Assembly: GCA_048881705.1 (NCBI GenBank)
Contig: JBHLSH010000060.1
Span: forward strand, 1-23,778
Source of the DNA: Candidatus Heimdallarchaeota archaeon
GTDB taxonomy: Archaea > Asgardarchaeota > Heimdallarchaeia > Hodarchaeales > Hodarchaeaceae
DNA length: 23,778 nucleotides
Direction of reading: 5' to 3'
Below, in pieces: positions 1 through 16,219 of this stretch. A program made the position numbers and the translations under genes. Positions within the stretch are counted from its first letter, which is position 1. Each line of letters starts with the position of its first letter. The notes under the pieces were generated by a model. That model had not been told where the DNA came from. It saw only the letters and a list, made by a program, of their open reading frames with translations, and ran no database searches.

Positions 1-3000
1 TATATTACAGATGGAACTTCGGCCAAGTTTTACCTAATTGCAGAAGTTAAGGATAGTATTGATTGGCTAAGTACAAATCGAATTGATGTTTCAGCAACGG
101 CGACAGGATGGACAGTACGAGACCTAGACAGTTATATTGCTTCGATTCCATTGAATACCTCAGGGGTAATTTTACAGCACGAATCAACTGGAACTGGGGG
201 CAGCGATTATAGAAATATAGCACGAGCGTATGGTCAAACATGGACTCTGCCCGATTATGATGTAGGCGGGGATACTTGGATGATGGCAGGGAGTGGAATT
301 GATGCACAAAACCGAATCCAAATTTACGCAGAATTTTTAGAACAAGATGTTTATGTTCATGCGTTAACCCGTTTTAGTGATAAAACTTCCCCAGTAATTG
401 AAAATATTGGCGTAGATGATCCAGGAACTGGAACTGCGACGTTTTGGGCCAACTTAACTGACCAATCTGGTGTTAATACCGTTACGATTACGATAAATGG
501 TACCGATTATCAAATGAGCTATAACGGTTCCTTTTGGATAAAAGACTTGACGGTGAAATGGCAAAAACTATATTCTTATCAGATAACCAATGCCTCCGAT
601 ATCTTTGGGAATTTCCCAACAGCGCCATCAGGATCGCAGGATTATTTGTTTGACTATGATTCTACCGTACCAATTGTTATAGATTGGGAATATTATCAGG
701 GAGCTGATGGGACTTGGGATGATCAAAACAATACTTTCCTAGCGAATGTAAGTGATTCCTGGGGTCAGATTGACACTGTGATGGTTGAAGTAATCACGTA
801 TTCTCTCACTGCCGTCATGGTTCAGTATTTCAACTTTTCTGGTATATTGGCATTTCGCAATAATTCTTTAAACTTGCCGAACGGAGGAATAGATTTCCGG
901 ATAATTGTAAACGACACTTCTGGCAATGGAGCTATTTCTTCCACTCATTCAGGGTCTGTATTTTACAACCATCCTCCTATCGCTTATGATCTCACTTTGA
1001 GTACGGCCCCCTATTATAGTAATTCCACCCTAACTCTTACGTATACTTACTTGGACGAAGATTCGCACCCACAGAGCGGAACTGAGATTCGTTGGTATAA
1101 AAATGGACTCTTGCAGGGTGACCACAACAATTCCCTGGTAATAGGTACCGTTTACCTATTTGATGGCGATGAGTGGAATGCGACCGTAAAGCCTAAAGAC
1201 GGGACTTTGTTTGGTCAATTAAATTATTCTTCCACTATCACAATCTCAAATACCCCTCCTGCCCTTTCCAACCTGAATATAGTACCTGGTAACCCTGTAA
1301 CGACTTCCACCCTTCTTGTGGATTATGATTATTTTGATTACGATGGAAACAATGAAAACTTCACTCTTCGTCAAATCGAATGGTATAAAGTTGGAACAGG
1401 ACACCTATTTGCATTCGATGACCAAGCGTCAATATCCTCTATCAATACCGTTAAGGGCGAAGAGTATTACGTCCGGGTCCGAGTCAACGATGGAAACGCA
1501 TATTCTGTTTGGATGATAAGCTCCACGATCGTAATTGGAAATAGCCACCCAAGTGCGGTCAACTTGTCATTACCCTTAAGTCCGACCAATGTAACAGATT
1601 TGACCGCCACATGGGATATGCAGGACGATGATACTAGTGATATTGAAAACAAAAGCGCCGCAATAATCTACTGGTATAAAAACGGAGTTCTACAATCCTC
1701 ATGGACCAACTCAACAACCATTGGATCAGGAAATACCTCGAAGGGACAAATATGGTGGTTTGAGGTAAGAATTTTTGATGGAGAAGAGTACTCGGCCATT
1801 ACGGAACTAATCCCCCATATAGAAATCCTTAATTCAATCCCTACCGTAGGTAATGTCATTATCACGACGTCCAGTCCGGTCACAACCGATGATTTAACCA
1901 TTGGAACTTGGAGTTATAGCGACGATGACAATGATACGGAAGAAACGCCTATTATCCACTGGTACCTTGATGGTAACCTTCAATCAACGTACGATGGCTA
2001 TACCTCTTTACCATCTATAGCTACAGCCAAAGGGGACAACTGGCACTTTGGAATCCGAACTTATGATGGATCTGCATACTCCCTTCAGGTCAATTCATCT
2101 CCAGTCTTAATTCTCAATACGGCACCCGAGGTGGGATCACCGACAATTACCCTTGCTCCTACCACAACTGAGGATCTGATTGCAAGCTGGACGTACAATG
2201 ATAATGATACTGACGGGTTAACCTTCAACGTGGCGTGGTATCTTGACGGTGTATTCAACTCGAGTTGGAGTGTTCCAACAAATAACGCGATATTAAGTGC
2301 TGGCAATACTTCTAAAAACCAGATGTGGTATTTTACCGTGCAGGCTTACGATGGAGAAGAATTTTCGATCCTCCTCTCCTTAGGATTTAACGTAACTATC
2401 CTAAATTCTCTACCAACAGTTTCTAATCCCACATTTAATAACACCAGTCCCACGACTAATGATAATTTCAACATAACGTATTCATACCTAGATTACGACG
2501 GGGATGCGGAAATCACTACTGAAATAATCGTATATTGGTACGTTAATTGGGTTTATCAATCCCAATATGAAAATTATACAGCCATATCTAATCAAAACAC
2601 TCAAACTGACGAGGTATGGTATTATGTGCTTCGTGTGTTTGATGGTTTTAGCTACAGTAATAACTACACGTCATTAACTGGAATTATCATAGGAGGCGGG
2701 ATAAATTCGAAGCCAATAGCTGAAAATTTAACTCTAACGCCTTCAATGCCCGATACGAGTGATGATCTGACGGCTTCATATGACTATTTTGATCCAGAGA
2801 GCAATGAACAGATTGCGTTCGAAATCACATGGTACCTGGATAACGTCGCTCAAACTCAATATAAAACACTAACAGTTCCTGCTAGTGCCACCACCAAAGG
2901 AGACCAATGGAATTTCACAATTAGAGTGTTTGACGGGTTACATTGGAGTGATCTGAATAGTTCAGCGGTTTATGTCATTGTTAATACGGCACCCCAGGTT

Positions 3001-6000
3001 AGCGGATTAAGTGCCGCCGCAAGTCCAGCCACTACTGATGATCTGGTCGTCAGCTGGAGTTCGTCTGATGAAGATTCAGATAGTTTGATATTTAATGTAA
3101 CCTGGATATTAAACGGAGTAATCAACTCAAGCTGGTGGACTTCTGACCATTTTGCAACCCTGATAGCAGGAAATACCACGAAAGGGGATAACTGGAATGT
3201 AACCATTGAAGCATATGATGGTGATAACGGGTATTCCCCCATCATAACGCTTGCAAGTAATATCACGATCCTCAACACTATTCCGGAGGCAGAAAACTTA
3301 ACTCTGACTTTAAATCCTAGGACTGCTGATGATTTAACCGCAGACTGGGATTATTCTGACATTGATGGTGATACACAAAATACTAGCGCCACAATCATTT
3401 ATTGGTATAAGAATGGTGATTTACAATCCTTATTGACCAATTTAACCACAGTCGGATATGGCAATACTTCTAAAGGGCAAGTTTGGTGGTTTAAAGTCAA
3501 GGTTTATGATGATGAAGATTATTCTGTGTTATACGAGCTCCGCCCTCATATCGAAATCCAGAATACGGCACCAGTAAACGTTTCTGCTCTCCCTGTTCCT
3601 ACAAACCCGACTAAAGAAAATGGAATCACTTTGTCTCTTTCGTCAATACTTTCCGCCTTTTATGATCCAGATGGAGGGGACAATATTGAAGTAGTTAAGA
3701 TTCGTTGGTACAAAGAAGGGATTCTTCAGGTCAATTTAAATGATTCATTAATCGTGACAGGAGCCAAATTAACCAAAGGAGAAAGCTGGTCGTATACGGT
3801 TATAGTATCTGATGGCTTCGAATCCGGGATGGTTGTAGCTTCAGCTGAATTCCAAATTGTAAACTCAATTCCCGTAATCTTGACTGCCTACATTACGGAA
3901 ACCAGTGTAAGAACCATTCACAATCTAACGGCTGGTTATATCTATAATGATGCTGATGGGGAACCTGTCAGTGTTTCGGAGATCAGATGGTATCGTTCAA
4001 CTGACTTTATCAATTATTTACTGATGTCTGCCTATGATGGCAATTTAAGACTCCCTTTCACAGCTACAGCAAAAAATGAAAGATGGAAATTCAACGTCAC
4101 GATAACAGACGGGTTTAATGAGTCAGTATGGAAGCTGTCCGACTATATTGAAATTGAAAACAGTGAACCGTGGATCGATCCCTTTAGCATAACGTTAATT
4201 GGGGGTCTGAACACATCAGATCTCATAACAGTAACGTATTCATGGTTTGATGATGACGGAGACACGCAGAGTGGTACCACATTTAGTTGGGAAAACAGTA
4301 CACACATCTTATTACTTGACGATACTCTAGAATCAATATATACAAAAGCAGGAGAAAGTTGGTCAGTTAGTATTACTCCCGGAGACGGTACGAGTTTTGG
4401 ACAAGTTGTTAATAGCAAATTTTACGGAGTAAATATTATTATTGGCAACACTCCGCCAGAGATTCCTGATAATGAAATTAAGATCCAAGGTTACGACCCA
4501 AGCAATGGATCATATAGTGATGGAATTGCCTTTGGTACGAATCTGGATCTTATTGTCCTCTATAACGTAACGGATATTGATGGAATACAGGGAGTGGTCC
4601 TTTATGATGTTTTCATAGTTGGTGGTTATGCCCTAGGTTCTGAATATCGTTGGTTTAGAAATCGATCCGGCATCATAACCTCAGTAGCAGCGCTCACTGG
4701 AAAGACAACAGTCCCAGCTACATATACGGAAAGGGGTGATCTCTGGTGGGTAGAAGTTAAACCACAGGATTTACAAGGGGATTTTGGAATTGCTGCAAAT
4801 TCCACAAAAATAAGCATCTCTAATACGGCCCCTTATTTAACAACTGTATCATGGGAGCAATCCTCATTCTATACCAGTGATGACTTATTGTTTACCTATA
4901 GTTTTGCAGATCACGATCAATCCGACATTGAACAGGGTAGCATAATAGAATGGTACCGAAATGGAATAAATCAAACTGGGTTCTTCAACTTCGCGGGTAT
5001 TCCCTCTCAAAATACAACGAAAACGGAAGAATGGTTTGCACGTATAAAGGTATACGATGGCAATCTGTATAGCGCCTGGTATTACTTACCAAATATCACG
5101 ATTGCCAATACAGCGCCGGTTGCTTACAATATCCTTCTGGCTCCCTTGTCAGCAACCGCAGACCAAGATCTCGTTGTATCATGGAATTATACTGATGCGG
5201 ATAACGACAGTCAACAGGCCCCGAGCATCCGCTGGTATAAAAACGATGTGTTGCAGCCCAATCTTAACAATTTGGACACCATAAATTCAGGAAATTTGAG
5301 TAAAAACGATATTTGGTATGTTATTCTAGAAGTCTATGACGGGAATGCCTATTCTGCGCAGCAGATTTCTTCCAGCATCCCCATACTTAATTCACCTCCA
5401 ATATTGACAAATGTGGTTCTCTGGAATAATAACGATCTTTCAAACACAACTTTCTCCGATGGGAGTATTTCCATATATTATTTCAACTATACTGACGTTG
5501 ATAATGATTTGATCGATCCTACAGGCCTTTATATTCTATGGTACCGTGATGGCATTTACGAATCTTTGTATGACAATCAAACTACTCTTTCAAGTGTTAT
5601 TCTTCAAAAAGGCTATACTTGGGCTGTCATTATACAGATCGTTGATATTGATGGAACTATATGGTCAAACAACCTTACATCTCAGAGTATTTCTGTCATC
5701 AATAAGGCACCTGATATATTGGAGTTTTCGTATGTAGGTAATGAATATTCTGGATTCGTTGTTGAAGATGAAGGCATCAATATTTCCCTAGCAACCATTG
5801 ATGTTGATATAGGTGATGATGACTTTTCCTTTATACGTTGGTATATCAATGGAGTTTACCAGCCACAATATGATAATATCATGCAGATTGAGCCTAATCA
5901 TACGTCTCCTGGTGAAATTTGGACTGCTATTGTCACTCCATCCGATGGTATAGACAACGGCGCATCAAGGAGCTTGGTCATCCTCATAGAAAGCCGCCCT

Positions 6001-7392
6001 AAAATCGAAGATTTTGATGTTGAAATTGAGCAAGATATCGATGGTCATTTCACCTTCAGTTTGAGGGTGAACGATACAAGAAATGAAGTTTTAACGGTGG
6101 TGTATCAAATCACTCTCAACGGGACTGAGCTCGATGTGACCCGTATTCTTAATGCCGCAAATGCAACGGGTCACTGGGTCTTTGATTATCATCTCTCAGA
6201 TATAATGTATTATAATACAGAGGCAATGATTAAAGTAACCGCTGAATCTAGCGTCGGAATCAGATCAGTCGAAAGCTTTAATTACACATTAATTGATGGA
6301 GTAGCTCCTCGTGTGTCGAACCAAGGCCTTGGAGTGAGATTTGTTAAGAATGGTAATAATCCTACTTATTTGTCTTTCTACGCAGATATTGAAGAATACG
6401 GATCGGGAGTAGCCAACATTACTCTACACTATTACTATAATGCCACCAACCAGGTAAGTAATGGTGGGCAAGGCTCTAGCCTGTTACAAAAATATACAGC
6501 TGTTATGATGGGCTATAATGGAACCGAGAATAACGTTTTGATTTACGCAGCCACGGTTCCATTTCCTCAGGACGGATTAAACTATGAGGTTCTTTATTGG
6601 GTATCCACACAGGATTTGAATGGGAATATAAATCCAATTGCGTTTGATATCAATGAATTTCCCGATCGAATAAAAAACGAGGAAATTGTTCGATCGCTTG
6701 GCGGACTCCCAGAATGGGTATTACTTGTAGCAGCGTTGGCCGTATTTCTTATTTTCATGGGATCAGTGACTTACATTAGATTCTTTAGAAAACCTGAACT
6801 GATAGGGCTAGACAAGGAACTTGTATTAAAAAAGGTCAGTAAACAATCAGATACTGTCATCTCTGAGAACCTGGACATTCATTCGCTGGGTATTGTAGTA
6901 TCCTTTTTTTCACAACACCATGGACCAGTACCAATTATTGTTCTACCTGAAATATTGAAGGATAATTTTGGTAAACTAATCGAAATTTCGGATCGTGCAT
7001 TTGGAAACTGTGGATTTACAAACAATTTCGAAAAAGAAACAATGGCTAGTTTCGACTTTGATTTAGCTCAAGGCAAGCAAATACGTTCACTGTCATTCGG
7101 CTATTCGTTGAACCGTCCAGAGGCCCGAGGAGGACAAGAGAATATTACGTTAAGTATATTGCTTAATGAAGATATTTATGCCATCCTCAACCATTTCCAA
7201 GATGAAATTCTTGTTAGAGTTCATGTGGTTCATAAAATGATGGATGAGAGACCAGAAGCAAAAGAAGAAATTCGTAAATCGCTGATTGGCATTCGTCGGT
7301 ATATTTCTTCTCTTGTATTAGCATACCAGGAAATCTATGGTGATCAACCTGCTGTGATGGAAACGCCGGATATTTTGGGATTTGGCGATTAA
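1..7392 (+). CDS. Giant single-pass surface protein (>2463 aa, 5'-truncated): Ig/cadherin-like repeat ectodomain, TM helix, cytoplasmic longin/uDENN-like domain
   Basis: Frame 1 is open from base 1 (YITDGTSAKFYLIAEVKD...), so the track start at 151 (TTG) is not the real start. It has tandem beta-rich repeats with many N-x-S/T sequons and a hydrophobic helix EWVLLVAALAVFLIFMGSVTYI followed by RFFRK. About 200 aa of C-terminal cytoplasmic domain follow. Confidence 0.93.
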   Translation, partial: YITDGTSAKFYLIAEVKDSIDWLSTNRIDVSATATGWTVRDLDSYIASIPLNTSGVILQHESTGTGGSDYRNIARAYGQTWTLPDYDVGGDTWMMAGSGIDAQNRIQIYAEFLEQDVYVHALTRFSDKTSPVIENIGVDDPGTGTATFWANLTDQSGVNTVTITINGTDYQMSYNGSFWIKDLTVKWQKLYSYQITNASDIFGNFPTAPSGSQDYLFDYDSTVPIVIDWEYYQGADGTWDDQNNTFLANVSDSWGQIDTVMVEVITYSLTAVMVQYFNFSGILAFRNNSLNLPNGGIDFRIIVNDTSGNGAISSTHSGSVFYNHPPIAYDLTLSTAPYYSNSTLTLTYTYLDEDSHPQSGTEIRWYKNGLLQGDHNNSLVIGTVYLFDGDEWNATVKPKDGTLFGQLNYSSTITISNTPPALSNLNIVPGNPVTTSTLLVDYDYFDYDGNNENFTLRQIEWYKVGTGHLFAFDDQASISSINTVKGEEYYVRVRVNDGNAYSVWMISSTIVIGNSHPSAVNLSLPLSPTNVTDLTATWDMQDDDTSDIENKSAAIIYWYKNGVLQSSWTNSTTIGSGNTSKGQIWWFEVRIFDGEEYSAITELIPHIEILNSIPTVGNVIITTSSPVTTDDLTIGTWSYSDDDNDTEETPIIHWYLDGNLQSTYDGYTSLPSIATAKGDNWHFGIRTYDGSAYSLQVNSSPVLILNTAPEVGSPTITLAPTTTEDLIASWTYNDNDTDGLTFNVAWYLDGVFNSSWSVPTNNAILSAGNTSKNQMWYFTVQAYDGEEFSILLSLGFNVTILNSLPTVSNPTFNNTSPTTNDNFNITYSYLDYDGDAEITTEIIVYWYVNWVYQSQYENYTAISNQNTQTDEVWYYVLRVFDGFSYSNNYTSLTGIIIGGGINSKPIAENLTLTPSMPDTSDDLTASYDYFDPESNEQIAFEITWYLDNVAQTQYKTLTVPASATTKGDQWNFTIRVFDGLHWSDLNSSAVYVIVNTAPQVSGLSAAASPATTDDLVVSWSSSDEDSDSLIFNVTWILNGVINSSWWTSDHFATLIAGNTTKGDNWNVTIEAYDGDNGYSPIITLASNITILNTIPEAENLTLTLNPRTADDLTADWDYSDIDGDTQNTSATIIYWYKNGDLQSLLTNLTTVGYGNTSKGQVWWFKVKVYDDEDYSVLYELRPHIEIQNTAPVNVSALPVPTNPTKENGITLSLSSILSAFYDPDGGDNIEVVKIRWYKEGILQVNLNDSLIVTGAKLTKGESWSYTVIVSDGFESGMVVASAEFQIVNSIPVILTAYITETSVRTIHNLTAGYIYNDADGEPVSVSEIRWYRSTDFINYLLMSAYDGNLRLPFTATAKNERWKFNVTITDGFNESVWKLSDYIEIENSEPWIDPFSITLIGGLNTSDLITVTYSWFDDDGDTQSGTTFSWENSTHILLLDDTLESIYTKAGESWSVSITPGDGTSFGQVVNSKFYGVNIIIGNTPPEIPDNEIKIQGYDPSNGSYSDGIAFGTNLDLIVLYNVTDIDGIQGVVLYDVFIVGGYALGSEYRWFRNRSGIITSVAALTGKTTVPATYTERGDLWWVEVKPQDLQGDFGIAANSTKISISNTAPYLTTVSWEQSSFYTSDDLLFTYSFADHDQSDIEQGSIIEWYRNGINQTGFFNFAGIPSQNTTKTEEWFARIKVYDGNLYSAWYYLPNITIANTAPVAYNILLAPLSATADQDLVVSWNYTDADNDSQQAPSIRWYKNDVLQPNLNNLDTINSGNLSKNDIWYVILEVYDGNAYSAQQISSSIPILNSPPILTNVVLWNNNDLSNTTFSDGSISIYYFNYTDVDNDLIDPTGLYILWYRDGIYESLYDNQTTLSSVILQKGYTWAVIIQIVDIDGTIWSNNLTSQSISVINKAPDILEFSYVGNEYSGFVVEDEGINISLATIDVDIGDDDFSFIRWYINGVYQPQYDNIMQIEPNHTSPGEIWTAIVTPSDGIDNGASRSLVILIESRPKIEDFDVEIEQDIDGHFTFSLRVNDTRNEVLTVVYQITLNGTELDVTRILNAANATGHWVFDYHLSDIMYYNTEAMIKVTAESSVGIRSVESFNYTLIDGVAPRVSNQGLGVRFVKNGNNPTYLSFYADIEEYGSGVANITLHYYYNATNQVSNGGQGSSLLQKYTAVMMGYNGTENNVLIYAATVPFPQDGLNYEVLYWVSTQDLNGNINPIAFDINEFPDRIKNEEIVRSLGGLPEWVLLVAALAVFLIFMGSVTYIRFFRKPELIGLDKELVLKKVSKQSDTVISENLDIHSLGIVVSFFSQHHGPVPIIVLPEILKDNFGKLIEISDRAFGNCGFTNNFEKETMASFDFDLAQGKQIRSLSFGYSLNRPEARGGQENITLSILLNEDIYAILNHFQDEILVRVHVVHKMMDERPEAKEEIRKSLIGIRRYISSLVLAYQEIYGDQPAVMETPDILGFGD
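967..5988 (+). repeat. 17 tandem ~93-125 aa cadherin/Ig-like protein repeats (mean ~98 aa)
   Basis: Counted by eye. Each unit starts N-(T/S)-x-P and has D-x-D-(G/N/S)-D, W-Y-x-(N/D)-G, T-x-K-G-x-x-W and a (Y/F)-D-G turn. Units 3-10 start at 1540, 1831, 2116, 2404, 2704, 2983, 3274 and 3562. The repeats are diverged at the DNA level. Confidence 0.9.
6712..6780 (+). other. Transmembrane helix of the giant protein (type I topology)
   Basis: EWVLLVAALAVFLIFMGSVTYIR is followed by basic FFRK (positive-inside rule). Confidence 0.9.
6880..7389 (+). other. Cytoplasmic longin/uDENN-like domain (SMCR8/FLCN type)
   Basis: Contains the N-terminal strand motif GIVVSFFSQHHGPVPIIVLP and the loop motif SLNRPEARGGQENITLSILL, then two long C-terminal helices. 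The order of elements fits a longin fold. Confidence 0.72.
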
Positions 7393-7546: not shown

Positions 7547-8926
7547 CTAGTGGCTTGTTCCGCTTGAAAAACTCATTTTCGCCAATTGAATGGCTGGCGT
7601 GGAGAAGGCCATATTAAACCATGTTCCGACTTGGAGGACATCCTTAGAGATTTCCACATCTGAAAACATGTTAAGGATGGAATCAGTGAACCTCAGGTTT
7701 TTCGCACTTCCGATAATTTCTCCGTTTTTTACGACAAAGACACCGTCCTTAGTCATACCAGTTTGTGTCCCTCTGGGCATGTCGATGTAGTTTGTGTAAT
7801 GTAAGTTTGTTATCAAAAGACCATGATCCATCTCAGAAATTAGTTGTTCTCGTGATTTCCTGCCTGGAAGAATTTTGGATGCGAGGGGAAATGGACCGCG
7901 CATGAGGCCACCAAATAAAACCACACATGACCCGTTGGACTTGGTTCCCAATTTTCCTGCCGACAAACGGTCATAAGCGAAGTTCTCAATTATGCCTTTG
8001 TTGATGAGATTGTAACGTTGCGTCGGAATGCCTTCCGCATCAAATGGAGTGGATGATAAGGAGGTTGCATCGTGAGGATCGTTCACCAATGTCATTGAGG
8101 GATCAAACAGCTGTTCACCAACTTTATCACGCGCGAAAGACTGATTGTCATAAACTGCGTCCCCGGACAAAGCTGAACCCAATGCGATAACCTGATCCGC
8201 CATTGCCTGATGGTCCAAGATCACAGAATAGGATTTTGCATCTATATTTTCAGCGTTTAATCCTAACACTGATCTTTCCGCCACTTGGATAGATTCTTTT
8301 TCAAACGGAAGCCGTTTAAAACTCCGCTCTCCAAATGAGGTATTACTCCTGGATTCTCCGCGACCATCATCGCTCATTGTATTTATGGTCGAAAGAACCG
8401 TTGTAGAAGGGTATGTACTCTCATGCCCTTCTGATGAAAGAAAATATGTCCAGCCATCTCGGAAGTTCAAACTTCCAGAAACAGTTTGCACTTTTTTCGA
8501 AAATTCATGTCCTGCATTGATTCCAGCAATTATCTTATCTGTTACGTCAGATACTGTTATGTCAGCGGCATCTGGGTCACTTAACTTTAATTGCGGATAC
8601 TTATGTGGTTCACTCAGAACGCCTGGAAAATCCGGGTTGTCAGGCAATATGTTTATTCTTTTAACTGCTTGATCAACGGCCCAGCTGATATCTTTAAGCG
8701 TAAGGGAATTAACTATGGTATCCACCTGTTTACGACCCTTAATGACCTTCAACTGAAAAATCGATTCATAATCTACAAAATTTTGATGGATACTGGAGTT
8801 CGCAAATCGGGTAGCGATTACACGATTCATACCTGCATTAACAGATGTGCCATCGGCGCCTCCTGCTTGAGCTCGTTTTATTGCGAATTTAGCCATTTCA
8901 ACGATATGATCAACCGTTATTTCCAT
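7547..8926 (-). CDS. pmbA: TldE/PmbA family protein (non-catalytic partner of TldD), ~459 aa
   Basis: Has PmbA/TldD-family features (DDPH/PFDAEG-like motif, LIxKG, TGMT-DG...ENG-like C-terminal region) but lacks HExxxH. The start is moved from 9043 to ATG 8926 (MEITVDH), which has a GGTGA motif ~5 nt upstream and lies 13 nt after the tldD stop. Confidence 0.88.
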   Translation of the reverse strand: MEITVDHIVEMAKFAIKRAQAGGADGTSVNAGMNRVIATRFANSSIHQNFVDYESIFQLKVIKGRKQVDTIVNSLTLKDISWAVDQAVKRINILPDNPDFPGVLSEPHKYPQLKLSDPDAADITVSDVTDKIIAGINAGHEFSKKVQTVSGSLNFRDGWTYFLSSEGHESTYPSTTVLSTINTMSDDGRGESRSNTSFGERSFKRLPFEKESIQVAERSVLGLNAENIDAKSYSVILDHQAMADQVIALGSALSGDAVYDNQSFARDKVGEQLFDPSMTLVNDPHDATSLSSTPFDAEGIPTQRYNLINKGIIENFAYDRLSAGKLGTKSNGSCVVLFGGLMRGPFPLASKILPGRKSREQLISEMDHGLLITNLHYTNYIDMPRGTQTGMTKDGVFVVKNGEIIGSAKNLRFTDSILNMFSDVEISKDVLQVGTWFNMAFSTPAIQLAKMSFSSGTSH

Positions 8927-8939
8927 CCTAATCACCTTT

Positions 8940-10382
8940 CTAGCCTGCAAAAAGATTGACATTCTGAAATCGTGCCCATCCTCCGCCATGTGAAACCCAC
9001 ATAACCTGCATTGGAACCCCTTTTCCGCAGTTTGGAGTCCCATAGTACTTATCCTCTCTAGTTATCATATCACATTCTCCCCAAAATTCAGGAGTTTTAG
9101 CGTTATAACACACGTTCTTGAGAGGTTTTGTGAGTTCTCCATTTTCAATTAACCAGCCAATTTGGGTACTGAACTGAAAATTAATGCGTTTATCATCAAT
9201 GGAATGAGATTTCCAAGAGAGTCCGTAAATGCCATTCTCTGTCTCCTCAATCATTTCTTCTACATCCCTGGGACCGTTCGGATCTGGTTCAAGATATAGG
9301 TGGGACATTCGTACAAGGGGAATTCGATTGTAATTCGCGATGCGAGAATTGCCAAGGGAATGTTCAAGCCCGATCTCGTGCGCAGTTTCTCTATCCGTCA
9401 TATAATTCTTAAAGATCCCTTTTTCAATTACAGGAAATCGTTTGGTTTCCACCCCCTCGTCATCGTATTTATAATGTCCGAGTACATCAGGAGTCTGTGG
9501 ATCACAGATAATGTTGACGAGCTCGGAGCCGTATTTATAGTTTTGTCCAAGTTTGTCAAGCGTCAGAAAGCTCGTTCCAGCAAAATCTGCTTCAAATCCC
9601 ATAACACGATCCAATTCGGTTGGATGTCCCGTTGATTCGTGAATAGTAAGACCGAGCTGAAAAGGTTCCAATATAAATGTAGTTCTCTCTTTTGGGCAAT
9701 TCTCAGCTTCATTTGCCAGTATTAGGGCATCATTCGCTACTCTCATTGCCTCTTCGGACCATTCAAATTCCCTAGCAAATTCGAAACCTCGCATTTGAAA
9801 ATCCCCACTAGATCTTGATTGAACTTCCGTGCCTATGGCTGTTGCACGGACTTGACATCCGCTGTAGGTCTGTTGTTGTTCAATCAGAGACCCTTCGGTA
9901 TTACCGAAGAACAATCGTTTTCTAGACGCGGTTAAGCCACTTACTCGAACTTTTATTTGCTCACTTGCGTCTTTCATTGCTGAGTCCGCCGCTCCGAGTA
10001 ATTCGAGCTTCTCTTCCATGTCCACTTCAAACGGATCTAATGTAAATGGAGTGATATATTTATCAGTAATTATGGGTTCTTCGGTTAAAACGACAGATTT
10101 GCGAAGTTTCTGAGAACTTGCTTTGGCAACCTTGAATGCCTGTTTAACTATAATAGGAATACGATCCTCATTTAGATTGGAGGAAGATGCATACCCCCAA
10201 GCACCTTTGTGAATGACACGGACATTAAAACCTTTCTGGAGTAAAGTGTTTGCTTCTTCAATATTTCCGTTTTTCAGAACATTTGTTTCATCCATAGTGG
10301 AAAATACCCTAGCATCGCCGTATCCGCCGTTGCTAGATCTACTGAGTTCTCGCATGATCTTTTCTAGGAAGCTTCTGGACAT
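8940..10382 (-). CDS. tldD: TldD family metalloprotease, 480 aa
   Basis: Contains HESTGH (HExxxH), the downstream ELDR motif, YxYDDEG, and C-terminal CGKG with the third metal-ligand Cys. GGTGA precedes the ATG. Confidence 0.92.
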   Translation of the reverse strand: MSRSFLEKIMRELSRSSNGGYGDARVFSTMDETNVLKNGNIEEANTLLQKGFNVRVIHKGAWGYASSSNLNEDRIPIIVKQAFKVAKASSQKLRKSVVLTEEPIITDKYITPFTLDPFEVDMEEKLELLGAADSAMKDASEQIKVRVSGLTASRKRLFFGNTEGSLIEQQQTYSGCQVRATAIGTEVQSRSSGDFQMRGFEFAREFEWSEEAMRVANDALILANEAENCPKERTTFILEPFQLGLTIHESTGHPTELDRVMGFEADFAGTSFLTLDKLGQNYKYGSELVNIICDPQTPDVLGHYKYDDEGVETKRFPVIEKGIFKNYMTDRETAHEIGLEHSLGNSRIANYNRIPLVRMSHLYLEPDPNGPRDVEEMIEETENGIYGLSWKSHSIDDKRINFQFSTQIGWLIENGELTKPLKNVCYNAKTPEFWGECDMITREDKYYGTPNCGKGVPMQVMWVSHGGGWARFQNVNLFAG

Positions 10383-11691: not shown

Positions 11692-14600
11692 CTAGTTCCG
11701 TCGACGGCGTTCTCTAATTATCAAAGCGAGCACGGGCACGGCTAATAAGACAATCATGACCCTTATATTTTCACGTATAAAGGCTGTCAAGGTCGTAAAG
11801 CCAGGTGCGCCGCCTTGAGTGGTTGACGTGGGTGGACCTGCTGTGGTGGTGGTAGTGGTTCCTCCAGGTGTGGTGGCTGCATACGCCGAAAGTAATTGGC
11901 TTCCTGAAAATGACGTCCAACTTGATCCAGTTGGTTCGCCCTGTTGGATCCTCAAACGTGGGATGCCTTCAGTTCCCGGATTTAAAGCCGTAGAGGTCAT
12001 TGCCAGTTTAATTGAAACTGGATTTTGTCCTTCGACTTCCTCGCCAGCCTCCATACCTGAAGCACCATCCATTGGAAAGCGGCTATCATATTCTACTTGC
12101 ACTGGGGGGAGAATGAGCGCACTAGCATTGATTACTTCGAGTCGATAATAGAATATGATTGTCTCTCCAGGAGCTAAGTGCACTCCTGCTATTCCTACAA
12201 CACTAATTGGAAATTGGGGATGGGTCATTGCAAATCCTTGATCATAACCTATGATAGTATTTCCAGAGCTATCCGTCACTTTAGTGTTGGAAGGTTGAGT
12301 ACCAATGGTATATGGAAAACTAAGATCTATTGCGGCCATTCGTGATGGGAAATAGCTAAAGATTTTGAGAGTAGTAGCCTCATCACCATCATTAGTAACT
12401 TCGGTCCTAATTTCAATAAAATCGTCGTCCTCTATGCTGCCTCCATTGAGGTCAGTCCAATCTACCGTAACGTTGACCACAGGGGATGGAAAACTTGGTT
12501 CATCTTTTCCAGCTTTATCATCTCCAGGAATCACAAGTGCAAGAATAAGATTCGAAGCCAAGTTGCTGACATCGGTAGCATTGAATGCCATGTTGTATCC
12601 TTCGTTGGCATCTGTGGTATAATTGAGCATGGCTGCAACAGGATGAATCCCCAGAAAAGTATTAACTTCTCTGTAGAACGTGTGAGTAACCTTTTGCCCA
12701 GGATTAAGATCAGTCAATGCAATTACGTTTGAGAATGGCAGAATATCCCTCGGTTCCCAATTCGGACCGAGTTGGGCGTGAAGACCCAGGACTGAGAGAC
12801 CTGATGCAGGAGCATCTCCGATGTTCTCAACTGTCACGTTTATCTCTGCAATTTCTCCAATCTTGTACACAGAGGAATTTAATACCACGTTAGTCTTCAG
12901 AATAGCTTCATCGTCGTACACCTGGATGATTAATCCATTCGACCAGCCATAATATTCTCGATCTGCTCCATCAGCATAACGGAAAAACACACCCGGAATA
13001 AACTCTGTATTAAGTGGCGGGAATCTGAGATCCGAGCCATTAGTTAGGGCTAGATCAACGATAAGATCTTGAAGATTGGTAATGCCATTGAATCGATCAC
13101 TGGTGTTATCCATAAGGGTGATGTTTATCTGAAAATACGGGTCGGTACCATTCATTAACCATTGCCCTGGAGAATTGGTAAAATTCCCGTCGATCCATAT
13201 AAAGGTATCACTCCTGCTCGGGAGATCTTCTATGGCCCACCAAAACTCAGTGGACGCCCCATTAGGAAGCGCGTTAATGGTTCCGTTTAACGCGAAATTG
13301 CCATTCGGTAAAATCATGGTATTCATGTTGGTTGATCTACTGAAGGTGAAGTAGGAGCGTTCGACATATACCTGAAGAAGGGTGGGTATAATTTTGATGT
13401 CGAACATATTTGATGTCGTATTCCATTCGGTGATAGGTTGGACTACTGAGCCATTGGCGGTATATGTGAACCACCCTGTAATCTCATAGCTATTGTTCTG
13501 GGTACCATCGTCATTGAAGACCAATTTATCAACAAAAGTTCCCGTCGAGCCATCATAGTATCTTACTAGGTTTGGATCCCACGCAAACTGAGTATCATCA
13601 AAAACTGTGATTTTTTGAGGTAAGGGTTGATCACCGAGATCCCATACAAATGTTGTGTTGTGGGCTGTTTCAGATCCTGTATTTGTTAATGTGATGGTGT
13701 AATTTAAGGTAGGAGAAGGAGCATGCAAGGCTGCTACATCAACCGAAAGATCTGCGGAGATTTGGGGAAATGTTTTGAGCTGATCAATCTGCATGTCGTA
13801 GGTGACATATAGATCGTCATATTGTACTGCGAATGGACCAAATTTCATGCCCCATTCAAACCTTCCAGTCAGTTCAGGGTAAAGATTTGTCGTAGCTGGC
13901 GAATATTCGTAGACATTGGCAACATACGGCAAGGTAAAGTGGATAGTACTAATAAAAGCGTTAGGAGATGGTTCTATGATCCCCGTATAACCGAATGCAT
14001 TCGTAATCGACATATTGTGAACCCCGCTGGGACCCACCGAAATGCCGTTTTCTAGAATGAACGCTGAAACAGTTAACGGTACCCAGTGTCGAGTTTGATT
14101 TCGTATCAAACCTGTACCGACCACTGAAACCGGTGCATCTGCTATGTTGTCCGCTTTGATAAAGCTGGTAAAACCACCCTGATTAAACAAGTCGTAGAAC
14201 TCATTCCTAATGAAATCAGAATGATCCTGTCCCGACATGTAGCCCCAATAAAACAGGGTCGTTTCACCTCCGATTTCAGATCCATAGAGGAGGTCGATGG
14301 GTACGCCCGACCAAGCTGACAGCTGAGTAGCTATAGCATTTCCATCGCTCATGGCTGGCTCAAGTAATTGCGAGAAATGCATAACCAATGTTATCCCATC
14401 TCTAAATTCCCACAGAGACCTGGGCCAATAGTGCCGCCATAAGTTTTGATTTGATGATACGATGTACAGGAACTCTAGTTGATCGAACTCCGTTGTAAAT
14501 GGGTCCAATGGGAATAACTTCTGGCCACCAATCTGGTGATATTGAGCGATCATTGCTGATCCATTTGCAGCGAGCAATTCTAGACCTTCGATGAACGGAT

Positions 14601-14733
14601 TCTCACCCACTAAGGTATCAGTGAAAATTCGTTTTGGCACCTGCATGTCTGCCTGCGTAAGACTGGTAGGAGTCAGCATTAGGACTAAGAGTGCCGCGCT
14701 AACAGCATAAAGCTGAATTTTTTTCGTTTTCAT
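11692..14733 (-). CDS. Large secreted/cell-surface glycoprotein (~1013 aa) with DUF11/CARDB-like Ig domains, a Thr-rich linker and a PGF-CTERM-like C-terminal anchor
   Basis: Signal peptide MKTKKIQLYAVSAALLVLMLTPTSLTQA. Three Ig-type strands: YTITLTNTGSETA, INVTVENIGDAPA and IRTEVTNDGDEAT. The tail is TTPGGTTTTTTAGPPTSTTQGGAPGF...VMIVLLAVPVLALII-RERRRRN. ATG 14733 is preferred over GTG 14742. Confidence 0.85.
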   Translation of the reverse strand: MKTKKIQLYAVSAALLVLMLTPTSLTQADMQVPKRIFTDTLVGENPFIEGLELLAANGSAMIAQYHQIGGQKLFPLDPFTTEFDQLEFLYIVSSNQNLWRHYWPRSLWEFRDGITLVMHFSQLLEPAMSDGNAIATQLSAWSGVPIDLLYGSEIGGETTLFYWGYMSGQDHSDFIRNEFYDLFNQGGFTSFIKADNIADAPVSVVGTGLIRNQTRHWVPLTVSAFILENGISVGPSGVHNMSITNAFGYTGIIEPSPNAFISTIHFTLPYVANVYEYSPATTNLYPELTGRFEWGMKFGPFAVQYDDLYVTYDMQIDQLKTFPQISADLSVDVAALHAPSPTLNYTITLTNTGSETAHNTTFVWDLGDQPLPQKITVFDDTQFAWDPNLVRYYDGSTGTFVDKLVFNDDGTQNNSYEITGWFTYTANGSVVQPITEWNTTSNMFDIKIIPTLLQVYVERSYFTFSRSTNMNTMILPNGNFALNGTINALPNGASTEFWWAIEDLPSRSDTFIWIDGNFTNSPGQWLMNGTDPYFQINITLMDNTSDRFNGITNLQDLIVDLALTNGSDLRFPPLNTEFIPGVFFRYADGADREYYGWSNGLIIQVYDDEAILKTNVVLNSSVYKIGEIAEINVTVENIGDAPASGLSVLGLHAQLGPNWEPRDILPFSNVIALTDLNPGQKVTHTFYREVNTFLGIHPVAAMLNYTTDANEGYNMAFNATDVSNLASNLILALVIPGDDKAGKDEPSFPSPVVNVTVDWTDLNGGSIEDDDFIEIRTEVTNDGDEATTLKIFSYFPSRMAAIDLSFPYTIGTQPSNTKVTDSSGNTIIGYDQGFAMTHPQFPISVVGIAGVHLAPGETIIFYYRLEVINASALILPPVQVEYDSRFPMDGASGMEAGEEVEGQNPVSIKLAMTSTALNPGTEGIPRLRIQQGEPTGSSWTSFSGSQLLSAYAATTPGGTTTTTTAGPPTSTTQGGAPGFTTLTAFIRENIRVMIVLLAVPVLALIIRERRRRN

Positions 14734-14852
14734 TACATTCACTCATTTTAAATTATCCTATAACTGTGAAAATACCTTCGTTTATGGTGAAAGTTAATTT
14801 CCTCAGTCATTCTGCAGGTCCACCAGATGCCCTCCGACTTTTTAAGGAAATC

Positions 14853-14917: not shown

Positions 14918-16219
14918 ATGATTCCAGCATTGTCCCATAGAATAGACTACATAATTAGCACTATCTTCTTTTTTTTCCTCGTACTGTTATTTCTATCGCA
15001 AGCTTATACTCAGCCAATAGTACAATTATCATTTGGGCTTATTCTCGTTTCTATCCTGGTTGGATTTCTCATGTATATCTTTACACCACCCACAGTGGCG
15101 TGGGGAAGATCCAGGTTCCTAAATATAGAAAAATTAATCCCTCCATTGGGCGTCGGTGTTCTTTTCGCGATTTATCGTTTAATCTTTCCAGTAAGCTCAG
15201 ATCTGATTGAAACAATCATTCAGATCATTCTTGGCTTGGTGCTAATCACGACTCCTAGCCTCTTTTATCTTGGATTTCCGCATACAGCAGACCAAGGGCT
15301 CACAAAAATCGATGTACTATTGGGATTGTGGGCCTGGATGCCGATTGAGTTCGGATTTGTGGACGACATGATCGGTACAATTGAAACTGGTAACATTCCA
15401 TTTGAAACATTGTACCTGCTCTTTGCATTCGTGTACGCGTTGATTTTCGTCCGAAATTTAGATATGGGTGTAGCGTACGGCGGTATGTCTTTCGATGACT
15501 TCATTCTTGTAATGAAAGTAACTGGCGTCGTCACCTTGACTATCTTGCCTCTAGGGGTTTTAACCAATTTCCTAGCTCCACCTGAAATAATTTGGGATAA
15601 TTTTCTGGGTTTGGTCGCTGATTTTCCTGTTTCGCTTTTCGATTCTATTTTAGTCTTTATCATGATTTTTTTGGGAATTGCTTTAATTGAAGAGATATTC
15701 TTCAGGGGATTTATTCACAACCTACTCGCCAAAAGGTTAAAAAAAGACGATCCCATGCAGTGGTGGTACCTCGGGGTCATACTTATGGGAGTATTGATAA
15801 CTTTAACTCCATGGGTGGACGATCTACTTAGTATAATGGCATTAACGTTTCCACAGGTTTTCGCGCCAATTGCAGCTATTGTAGGTTCGTTGGCTCAACC
15901 GTTAGGGGCTGCAGAAGGGAAGGCATGGTCATTGGTTTCGGAATTTCCCCTGGAGCTTCTATACTTTGGAGTTGCTCTGGTTTTATCGATTATAGCGATC
16001 ATTGTAATTCAGAGAACCAAGGATCCAATTTTAGCGGCCTTGGTAATTAGCTCTATGCTCTTTGGTTGGGCGCATTTTGAAGATTTGAGGTACATATTTT
16101 TTGCCACAATAGCAGGATTTGGATACGGGTATACGTATCAGAAAACGGATAAAGTGGTCCTTGCCGCTCTCGTACATACGATAGTCGACGCGGTTTGGAG
16201 CTTAGTCCTGGTATTTTGA
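14918..16219 (+). CDS. CPBP (CAAX protease/Abi, type II) family intramembrane glutamic/metalloprotease, 433 aa
   Basis: Motif 1 EEIFFRG (15689), motif 2 FGWAH (16061) and motif 4 HTIVD (16175) are present in a polytopic hydrophobic protein. Confidence 0.9.
   Translation: MIPALSHRIDYIISTIFFFFLVLLFLSQAYTQPIVQLSFGLILVSILVGFLMYIFTPPTVAWGRSRFLNIEKLIPPLGVGVLFAIYRLIFPVSSDLIETIIQIILGLVLITTPSLFYLGFPHTADQGLTKIDVLLGLWAWMPIEFGFVDDMIGTIETGNIPFETLYLLFAFVYALIFVRNLDMGVAYGGMSFDDFILVMKVTGVVTLTILPLGVLTNFLAPPEIIWDNFLGLVADFPVSLFDSILVFIMIFLGIALIEEIFFRGFIHNLLAKRLKKDDPMQWWYLGVILMGVLITLTPWVDDLLSIMALTFPQVFAPIAAIVGSLAQPLGAAEGKAWSLVSEFPLELLYFGVALVLSIIAIIVIQRTKDPILAALVISSMLFGWAHFEDLRYIFFATIAGFGYGYTYQKTDKVVLAALVHTIVDAVWSLVLVF

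Follow-up and report, generated by a model that had tools for sequence, protein, structure and literature searches.

The window analysed here is a stretch of 23,778 nucleotides (C60:1-23778) from a Heimdall-group Asgard archaeon, and it opens within one very long gene (Table 1). The frame encodes 2,463 amino acids followed by a stop codon; because the frame is still open at the first base of the window, which is also base 1 of contig C60, the N-terminus of the protein is missing. The part that is present consists of an ectodomain of more than 2,237 residues, one transmembrane helix and a tail of 203 residues (P0003, window positions 6781-7389), much as an earlier note on this DNA had laid it out (a repeat ectodomain of more than 2200 residues, one helix and a tail). 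A full-length relative (P0004) is 67% identical. The DNA runs that contain the sequence are sediment metagenomes and may be the source sample; no RNA run containing it was among the sequencing runs listed.

Table 1. Features of the giant gene and its product (window coordinates; residue numbers of the tail count from its own start)
Feature	Position	Strand	Basis
Giant single-pass surface protein gene, 5' end cut by contig end	1..7392	+	translation
Array of 17 tandem repeats of about 95 aa, residues 323-1985	967..5955	+	repeat analysis of translation
Membrane-proximal ectodomain, about 250 aa	5956..6714	+	without Pfam match
Transmembrane helix WVLLVAALAVFLIFMGSVTYI, then RFFRK	6715..6777	+	translation
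Juxtamembrane helical segment, tail residues 8-34, conserved G-L-D-K-E-L-V	6802..6882	+	model, pLDDT about 97
Longin core, tail residues 35-186	6883..7338	+	AF2 model and PDB matches
GP-motif hairpin F-F-S-Q-H-H-G-P-V-P, G48-P49 opening beta2	6904..6933	+	alignment and AF2
beta4-beta5 loop R-P-E-A-R-G-G with candidate arginine finger R116	7114..7134	+	alignment and AF2

The repeats of the ectodomain share the consensus N-[ST]-x-P ... D-x-D ... W-Y-x-N-G ... K-G-x-x-W ... D-G. Its D-x-D is conserved across the tandem repeats; cadherin-type repeats carry acidic Ca-binding motifs. The term cadherin-like, used in the earlier note, finds weak backing: one of 16 repeats matches Pfam Cadherin_5 (E 4.9e-5), and Pfam gives no match for the whole protein. 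A profile of the repeats likewise matched nothing among PDB sequences. N-glycosylation sequons (N-x-S/T) are plentiful in the array; the ectodomain carries 73 of them, against 34 expected from its composition, and the tail carries one. The hydrophobic stretch of the membrane helix is 21 residues long, and the RFFRK directly after it fits a positive-inside topology, in which the tail would be cytoplasmic. The gene product is pictured as a type-I giant surface glycoprotein, probably with tandem Ig/cadherin-like beta-sandwich repeats outside and a single membrane helix.

The fold of the tail

With an alignment of 70 sequences, AF2 produced a confident model of the tail (pLDDT 91.7, pTM 0.86); the model from the single sequence was poor (pLDDT 41.9) and was discarded. 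In the core, beta1 (residues 35-44), beta2 (48-55), alpha1 (57-77), beta3 (87-94), beta4 (100-111), beta5 (119-129), alpha2 (130-156) and alpha3 (161-186) succeed one another in the b-b-a-b-b-b-a-a order of longins. The juxtamembrane helical segment is peculiar to the tail family.

The model was aligned structurally with the whole PDB, independently of Foldseek. The top match is a Lokiarchaeota longin (8yqg; Z 13.8, 141 aligned residues, rmsd 3.0), and the longin of FLCN (6nzd_H) follows at Z 12.0 over 135 aligned residues (rmsd 2.6, identity about 13%). Entries of C9orf72-SMCR8 score 10.3-11.9 (7o2w_A, 11.7; 6lt0_B, 10.3), GATOR1 NPRL2 10.5-11.0 (8fw5_B, 10.5), Lst4 11.1, FNIP2 9.9 and Npr2 9.8. 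DENND1 scores 9.5, and TRAPP, AP and SNARE longins reach at most 8.3. The longin fold proposed in the earlier note is what the model returns, its best PDB matches being longins of GAP complexes and the Lokiarchaeota longin. The rank of the folds is by itself silent on catalysis because the top matches include the non-catalytic partners Lst4, FNIP2 and C9orf72.

These three partners score Z 9.9-11.7, and DENND1, a Rab GEF, scores 9.5, which speaks for a different reading, in which the tail is a longin platform devoid of GAP chemistry. It would serve as an anchor or scaffold for a small GTPase at the membrane, like Ragulator or Lst4/FNIP2/C9orf72, or as a GEF, and the conserved arginine would contribute to binding or fold stability. 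PMC10933270 describes most longin modules as GEF platforms. We consider this reading rather unlikely, mainly in view of the motifs described below.

A small-molecule sensor of the PAS/LOV/GAF kind was also weighed, since the best E-values in Foldseek belong to LOV proteins and since ligand-binding domains of the GAF and LuxR types score Z about 6. The LOV/PAS rows were rejected: they have TM 0.30-0.33, rmsd 10-13 A and the wrong topology, and on re-alignment they do not exceed Z 7.2. The order of strands and helices is that of a longin and not of PAS, and no cofactor-binding motif was seen in the tail, so that a sensor is extremely improbable.

The tail of the window has no match in Pfam, and phmmer and hmmsearch with the tail and the family profiles gave no significant longin match among PDB sequences. 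Six of 30 family members match Pfam Folliculin (PF11704; E 5e-4 to 6e-3), all of these matches lying below threshold (16.8-20.3 bits against a cut-off of 23.3); genome-wide, one soluble protein of 430 residues is alone in reaching the cut-off. The matched stretch in the paralogues is exactly beta4-ARG-beta5-alpha2, and the arginine falls on about column 61 of the profile in two paralogues and in a soluble FLCN-like protein that this genome also encodes. Weak PDB rows named 'Folliculin' (E 0.059-0.89) were taken as chance, as their alignments fall on FLCN's C-terminal DENN domain and do not place Arg on Arg. The nearest named protein-language-model clusters, NPR2 (0.85) and Lst7/Folliculin (0.80), are leads only. 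Overall, homology of the tail to the longins of GAP complexes is very probable.

The GP motif and the loop arginine

Two motifs had been singled out in the earlier note, and both lie where it had placed them: IVVSFFSQHHGPVPIIVLP covers tail residues 38-56 (nt 6892-6948), and the arginine of YSLNRPEARGGQEN is tail residue 116 (codon 7126-7128). The strand-loop-strand that had been predicted around this arginine corresponds in the model to beta4, a loop of residues 112-118 and beta5, with R116 within the loop. Conservation was examined in an alignment of 70 relatives whose identity to the query is 22-54%. Neither G48 nor P51 varies among them (70/70), P49 and R116 are each found in 67, and G118 in 63; E120/N121 are kept in at least 90%. 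Of the 30 relatives below 35% identity, 27 retain GP and 27 retain R, and two of the three relatives without the arginine also lack the proline of GP. Conservation to this degree shows that the motifs are not due to chance. The arginine of ARG, a motif whose conservation the earlier note had asked about, is kept in nearly all of these relatives.

By definition the GP motif either closes the beta1-beta2 loop or opens beta2; in SMCR8 it is G68-P69, with R147 as the arginine (PMC12290439). SMCR8 R147 lies in the betaL4-betaL5 loop and is equivalent to FLCN R164 (10.1101/2020.04.16.045708), as the earlier note had it. As modelled, G48-P49 and R116 of the tail occupy the published GP-motif and arginine-finger positions of FLCN, NPRL2 and SMCR8. 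The combination of GP and loop arginine is present in GAP-active subunits and absent from FNIP2, NPRL3, DENND and TRAPP longins (PMC12290439). In the tail family each element is about 96% conserved, which argues against a platform lacking GAP chemistry. That the tail acts as an arginine-finger GAP, a role read from sequence and model, is put forward tentatively, as a possibility somewhat short of probable.

Such a GAP would probably need a partner. Known longin GAPs work as heterodimers, the second longin subunit being FNIP/Lst4, NPRL3 or C9orf72, and the longin of SMCR8 is inactive alone (10.1101/2020.04.16.045708). The stimulation of GTP hydrolysis by the conserved loop arginine would then probably take place only after the tail has paired with a second longin, which could be a second copy of itself, the tail of a paralogue or a soluble longin with the GP motif; longins of the last kind are encoded in the same genome, for example at C4:96900-97355, and are candidate partners.

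Paralogues and Rag-type neighbours

The tail family is always C-terminal in large proteins. The genome has nine giant genes with a tail of this FLCN-type longin family, some of them in tandem arrays, and the ectodomains of the nine paralogues are very different (987-4,342 aa). The same genome has eight strong Rag-type GTPase genes. In two of the nine paralogues a Rag-type gene lies 34 and 54 bp from the tail-coding end, and the same adjacency is seen in three of 28 loci elsewhere (L026, L028 and L029, in other genomes), the distances over all five loci being 34-64 bp. The two paralogues lie at C4:67067-78130 (minus strand) and C4:80888-90139, and their adjacent Rag-type genes at C4:66108-67013 and C4:90173-92449. 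Adjacency at the tail-coding end, within 500 bp, has P about 7e-4 by permutation; a looser test with a neighbourhood of 5 kb was not significant (P 0.06). At the window's own gene, no GTPase or longin gene is present in the 16 kb downstream, and the upstream side is cut off by the contig end. The nearest loci (L009, L010 and L017) have no synteny with it beyond the tail.

These observations bear on whether the tail has to do with GTPases at all. It could instead be a module for assembly, sorting or linkage to the cytoskeleton that clusters giant surface proteins, its FLCN likeness reflecting the ancestry of the fold. The presence of nine paralogous tails on very different ectodomains, some in tandem, is what a generic tail module would give, and seven of the nine copies are without a GTPase neighbour. 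Against this stand the Rag genes that directly adjoin the tail-coding end of two copies and of loci in three other genomes, and the retention of the loop arginine and the GP hairpin in more than 90% of relatives down to 25% identity. A GTPase-independent module is, on this evidence, quite unlikely. The Rag neighbours of the sister genes would suit any kind of GTPase partner, a platform included. The balance tips modestly towards a tail that binds or regulates a Rag/Arf-type GTPase.

The best explanation overall, which we favour with moderate confidence, is a membrane-tethered longin tail of the GAP class on a giant surface glycoprotein. The last 190 or so residues would form a tethered longin of the class of FLCN/Lst7, NPRL2 and SMCR8, and would most likely serve as a docking site for a Rag/Arf-family small GTPase on the inner side of the cell membrane, where the loop arginine may then stimulate GTP hydrolysis. 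The assignment to a cytoplasmic longin of the FLCN/SMCR8 class, made in the earlier note, holds up on fold, topology, motif position, conservation, sub-threshold Folliculin matches and the Rag neighbours of sister genes. Its further proposal is outside-in signalling, in which extracellular contact could gate a cytoplasmic GAP for a small GTPase. A more specific form, in which contact or ligand-induced clustering of the ectodomains of giant surface receptors in Heimdall-group archaea would produce an active dimer of tail longins and so turn Rag-like GTPases off at the cell membrane, seems unlikely.

Relation to known longin GAPs

To our knowledge, FLCN, GATOR1 and C9orf72-SMCR8 are the only longin-based GAPs. 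Longin GAPs control Rag and Arf GTPases at the lysosome and have a part in nutrient signalling, cancer and ALS/FTD. With FLCN/Lst7, which in the FLCN-FNIP (Lst7-Lst4) complex is the catalytic GAP subunit for RagC/D (Gtr2), the tail has in common the longin fold, GP at beta2 and an arginine in the beta4-beta5 loop; its paralogues match Pfam Folliculin on the arginine segment, and sister genes adjoin Rag-type genes. The C-terminal DENN domain is absent. As the tail ends 17 residues past alpha3, it is Lst7-like, that is, longin only, and not FLCN/SMCR8-like. FLCN and Lst7 are soluble proteins recruited to the lysosome or vacuole, whereas a covalent link holds the archaeal tail at the cell membrane, behind a giant ectodomain. 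SMCR8 (with C9orf72 and WDR41; an Arf/Rab GAP) and NPRL2 (in GATOR1; a RagA/B GAP) share the fold class, GP and the loop arginine, but each is a large soluble subunit of several domains with a DENN or an NPRL2-specific domain at the C-terminus, and they act as obligate heterodimers.

Among archaeal proteins, the Lokiarchaeota Roadblock-Longin (8yqg), the best structural match, was solved as a dimer according to the title of its entry. It differs in being fused to a roadblock domain and not to a membrane helix and ectodomain, and its identity to the tail is 13%. The Asgard proteins termed 'Folliculin/SMCR8 longin domain-containing' (Traffic 2025, PMC12290439) belong to the same class, have both motifs and occur in the Heimdall group, so that the GP and arginine signature in Asgard longins is already known, having been published in 2025. 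FLCN-like and NPRL2-like Asgard longins of the same domain class and lineage are also described in a preprint (Liu et al., 10.1101/2020.10.19.343400). The main texts of these two papers give soluble proteins or fusions with DENN or two-component domains, in which respect they differ from the tail, and they make no mention of a membrane-anchored tail on giant surface proteins. The anchored, receptor-like architecture was not found in the literature searched.

Outside the longins, the architecture recalls plexins. These receptors cross the membrane once and carry a cytoplasmic GAP domain that acts on Rap GTPases. The analogy is conceptual only and is not evidence: both would have a large adhesive or ligand-binding ectodomain, one membrane helix and a cytoplasmic domain that regulates a GTPase and could be switched on by dimerisation. 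Plexins are eukaryotic, and their RasGAP-like fold is not related to the longin.

The tethered family is predicted to place a FLCN-type longin on the cytoplasmic side of the cell membrane, behind very large adhesin-like ectodomains, and the Rag-adjacent sister genes provide concrete pairs of regulator and GTPase, through which the pre-lysosomal role of the ancestral FLCN/NPRL2-type longin becomes accessible to experiment. These results suggest that, in archaea closely related to eukaryotes, the cell surface may be connected to small GTPases. Should the outside-in reading hold, the family would represent a forerunner, at the plasma membrane, of the FLCN/GATOR-Rag nutrient pathway of the lysosome, older than eukaryotes themselves.

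The giant gene and its surroundings

The first gene of the window encodes a single-pass giant glycoprotein whose cytoplasmic end is a GAP-complex-type longin with both signature motifs intact. Its single frame is open from base 1, which is also base 1 of its contig (C60; source genome 3.96 Mb in 155 contigs, 91% complete), so the 5' end is absent and the protein exceeds 2,463 aa. Residues 323-1985 of the ectodomain form 17 tandem repeats of about 95 aa each, with the consensus N-[ST]-x-P ... D-x-D ... W-Y-x-N-G ... K-G-x-x-W ... D-G. The pre-membrane part is devoid of cysteine and carries 73 N-x-S/T sequons (34 expected from composition), and the tail carries one. RFFRK comes directly after the hydrophobic helix, so that the final 203 residues (P0003, the tail) are assigned to the cytoplasm. 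The Pfam scan of the whole giant protein gave no match, and the repeat profile found nothing among PDB sequences. The term cadherin-like, used for this protein in an earlier note, holds only weakly, as one of 16 repeats matches Cadherin_5 (E 4.9e-5).

Among the downstream genes (Table), the upstream member of the PmbA/TldD pair is extended at its N-terminus, where a C-x-x-C ... H motif stands ahead of the conserved part, and the 1,016-aa surface protein has neither a Pfam family nor a longin tail. The other genes in the 16 kb downstream encode a membrane protein without assignment, a HAD hydrolase, an LMW phosphatase, a kynureninase-like enzyme and a MarR-like coiled-coil protein. On contig C4, 4 kb separate a Ste24-like gene from the Rag genes. 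Rce1-like and Ste24-like enzymes process prenylated small GTPases in eukaryotes, and both families are widespread in prokaryotes.

Table. Features of the window, of its tail (residues, AlphaFold2 model) and of other contigs of the same genome (C numbers; L numbers, corresponding loci)
Feature	Position	Strand	Remarks
Giant gene	window 1-7392	+	stop 7390-7392
Hydrophobic helix	window 6715-6777	+	21 residues
Tail	window 6781-7389	+	203 residues
R116 codon	window 7126-7128	+	
beta1	tail 35-44		
beta2	tail 48-55		
alpha1	tail 57-77		
beta3	tail 87-94		
beta4	tail 100-111		
beta5	tail 119-129		
alpha2	tail 130-156		
alpha3	tail 161-186		
PmbA/TldD metallopeptidase pair	window 7547-10382	-	listed ORFs overlap 104 nt (8940-9043)
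Surface protein, 1,016 aa	window 11692-14742	-	N-terminal signal-like helix, Thr/Gly/Pro-rich stalk, C-terminal TM helix then RERRRRN
Rce1-like CAAX prenyl endopeptidase	window 14918-16219	+	
Ste24-like gene	L037:1110-2327	-	Peptidase_M48 with CAAX N-terminal domain
Rag-type GTPase gene	C4:66108-67013, L037:6609-7508	-	Gtr1_RagA E 5e-39; 54 bp from sister giant's tail-coding end
Rag-type GTPase gene	C4:90173-92449, L038:74-2305	-	Gtr1_RagA E 9e-31; 34 bp from sister giant's tail-coding end
Soluble protein with F-D-x-x-x-G-P-x-P hairpin	C4:96900-97355	+	
Soluble protein with F-D-x-x-x-G-P-x-P hairpin	C51:28614-29360	+	
Soluble protein with F-D-x-x-x-G-P-x-P hairpin	C50:27823-29025	-	
Soluble 430-aa protein	C1:94140-95468, L039:641-1930	-	Folliculin 22.9 bits scanned alone
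Three tail giants, head to tail	C19:1-17873	+	3,424, 1,546 and 987 aa

Fold and motifs of the tail

Prediction from the single tail sequence gave a poor fold, and AlphaFold2 on an alignment of 70 relatives gave a model with pLDDT 91.7 and pTM 0.86. In this model, two or three short juxtamembrane helices (residues 12-34) precede elements whose predicted order is that of a longin. The model was aligned structurally to 48,161 PDB representatives, independently of Foldseek. A Lokiarchaeota Roadblock-Longin protein (8yqg) ranks first (Z 13.8), followed by FLCN (6nzd_H, 12.0), C9orf72-SMCR8 (7o2w_A, 11.7), Lst4 (11.1), NPRL2 in GATOR1 (10.5), 6lt0_B (10.3), FNIP2 (9.9), Npr2 (9.8) and DENND1A (9.5); TRAPP, AP sigma/mu and SNARE longins reach 8.3 or less. 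The re-ranked Foldseek list agrees with this ranking. The longin fold that the earlier note had proposed, of SMCR8/folliculin type, is thus borne out by the element order and by the high rank of GAP-complex longins. The best Foldseek E-values belonged to LOV domains, a reading rejected at TM 0.30-0.33 and rmsd above 10 A; that the tail is a PAS-like sensor is unlikely.

As defined in a 2025 survey of longin GAP complexes (PMC12290439), the GP motif closes the beta1-beta2 loop or opens beta2 and adjoins the arginine finger; FLCN, NPRL2, SMCR8 and C9orf72 have it, and FNIP2, NPRL3, DENND and TRAPP longins lack it. R147 of SMCR8, equated with FLCN R164, lies in the betaL4-betaL5 loop (C9orf72-SMCR8-WDR41 structure, 10.1101/2020.04.16.045708). 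In the tail model, G48-P49 opens beta2 and R116, the candidate finger, lies in the beta4-beta5 loop. Both tail strings quoted in the earlier note lie at the coordinates that it gave, and the arginine, whose conservation it had left to be checked, is kept in 67 of the 70 aligned relatives. G48 and P51 are invariant in this set, and P49 is conserved in 67, G118 in 63 and E120 in 66. Among the 30 relatives less than 35% identical to the query, GP and R are each kept in 27, and two of the three that lack R have also lost the P of GP.

The window's own tail has no match in Pfam. Folliculin (PF11704) matches 6 of 30 relatives, with a best E of 5e-4, and in two paralogues (L007, L008) the match covers exactly beta4-ARG-beta5-alpha2 (profile positions 47-112). 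The arginine falls at about profile column 61 in both, and likewise in the soluble 430-aa protein, if no gaps are assumed. The latter is long enough for an FLCN-like longin plus DENN protein and, alone in the genome, reaches the Folliculin cut-off (23.3 bits, genome-wide search); in hhalign its R-G aligns weakly with that of the tails (E 0.033). Among named protein-language-model clusters, NPR2 (0.85) and Lst7/Folliculin (0.80) are nearest, as leads only. These links to Folliculin/NPR2 are all sub-threshold and agree in direction with the fold.

Rag-type GTPases and a possible mechanism

Of the eight strong Rag-type GTPase genes in this genome (Gtr1_RagA E below 1e-30), two adjoin sister giants. 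Two adjacencies within 500 bp arise in 0.07% of trials with eight Rag genes placed randomly; a looser 5-kb test is not significant (P 0.06). The product of the second gene is 744 aa long, its C-terminal ~550 residues without a Pfam family, and a similar Rag fusion of 663-756 aa occupies the same convergent position at two loci of other genomes (L026, L028). Immediate adjacency is found in other genomes at three loci: these two, L028 with two Rag genes, and L029. The tail family is partially linked to Rag-type GTPase genes, at the family level. The window's copy is followed by 16 kb without a GTPase or longin gene, and it has no synteny with its nearest relatives. A rival explanation takes the tail for a GTPase-independent module for surface-protein assembly.

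In the GAP reading, the tail would bind a Rag/Arf-type GTPase at the membrane and would supply R116 as the arginine finger. The SMCR8 longin alone is inactive without C9orf72 (10.1101/2020.04.16.045708), and the entry title of 8yqg, the best structural match, describes a dimer; the tail therefore probably requires a second longin. The tail might instead be a non-catalytic GTPase platform or a GEF, which is also a rival to a GAP. For a GAP, receptor clustering would be a natural way to bring the second longin, although this is speculation. One soluble GP-motif longin, of 145 aa, is encoded 6.8 kb away from a Rag-adjacent giant and lacks an Arg at the corresponding place in the loop; it and the other small or medium-sized soluble proteins with the hairpin (Table) are possible Arg-less partner subunits, and nothing more.

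Range of the family and earlier descriptions

A search of 1.84 billion representative proteins yields 145 tail relatives at E below 1e-3, many of the short ones being fragments. In nearly all sufficiently long hits, in proteins of up to 5,809 aa, the match stops a few residues before the C-terminus. In public databases these proteins are called 'hypothetical protein' or 'DUF2341 domain-containing protein', and records of close relatives are labelled Hodarchaeota, Hodarchaeum mangrovi or Heimdallarchaeota, with some submitters using Thor-, Hermod- or Promethearchaeota. The nearest protein (67% identity) is from a Kariarchaeaceae MAG. Nine copies are present in the window's genome, each at the end of an ORF of 987-4,342 aa. 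The third copy on C19 has a far more divergent tail (E 5e-13); two or three giants also stand head to tail in several other genomes (L030, L031, L033-L036).

Across a sample of 300 genomes from the phylum, matches to the tail profile occur in 19 of the 20 that belong to the same genus (1-11 copies each) and in 20 of 29 and 8 of 11 genomes of two other families of the class, with weaker matches in some families of other classes. Most of the matches listed fall in long ORFs, the longest of 10,431 aa. In four sister genomes (G062:C193, G102:C10, G119:C87, G211:C52), the same tail ends open frames of 8,800-10,431 aa, which are, to our knowledge, among the largest archaeal ORFs met in listings. The window's copy is a typical member of the family, and the Rag-adjacent sister genes are better experimental entry points.

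FLCN-like and NPRL2-like Asgard longins, the latter also fused to two-component domains, have been reported (Liu et al., 10.1101/2020.10.19.343400), and a 2025 paper described Asgard longins that carry the GP + Arg signature (PMC12290439). The text of neither mentions a transmembrane or extracellular context, and a full-text literature search found no description of a giant surface protein with a tethered longin tail. The window's longin shares the GP + Arg signature of the Asgard longins published in 2025 and is carried on a TM-anchored giant surface protein, an arrangement absent from the texts searched.
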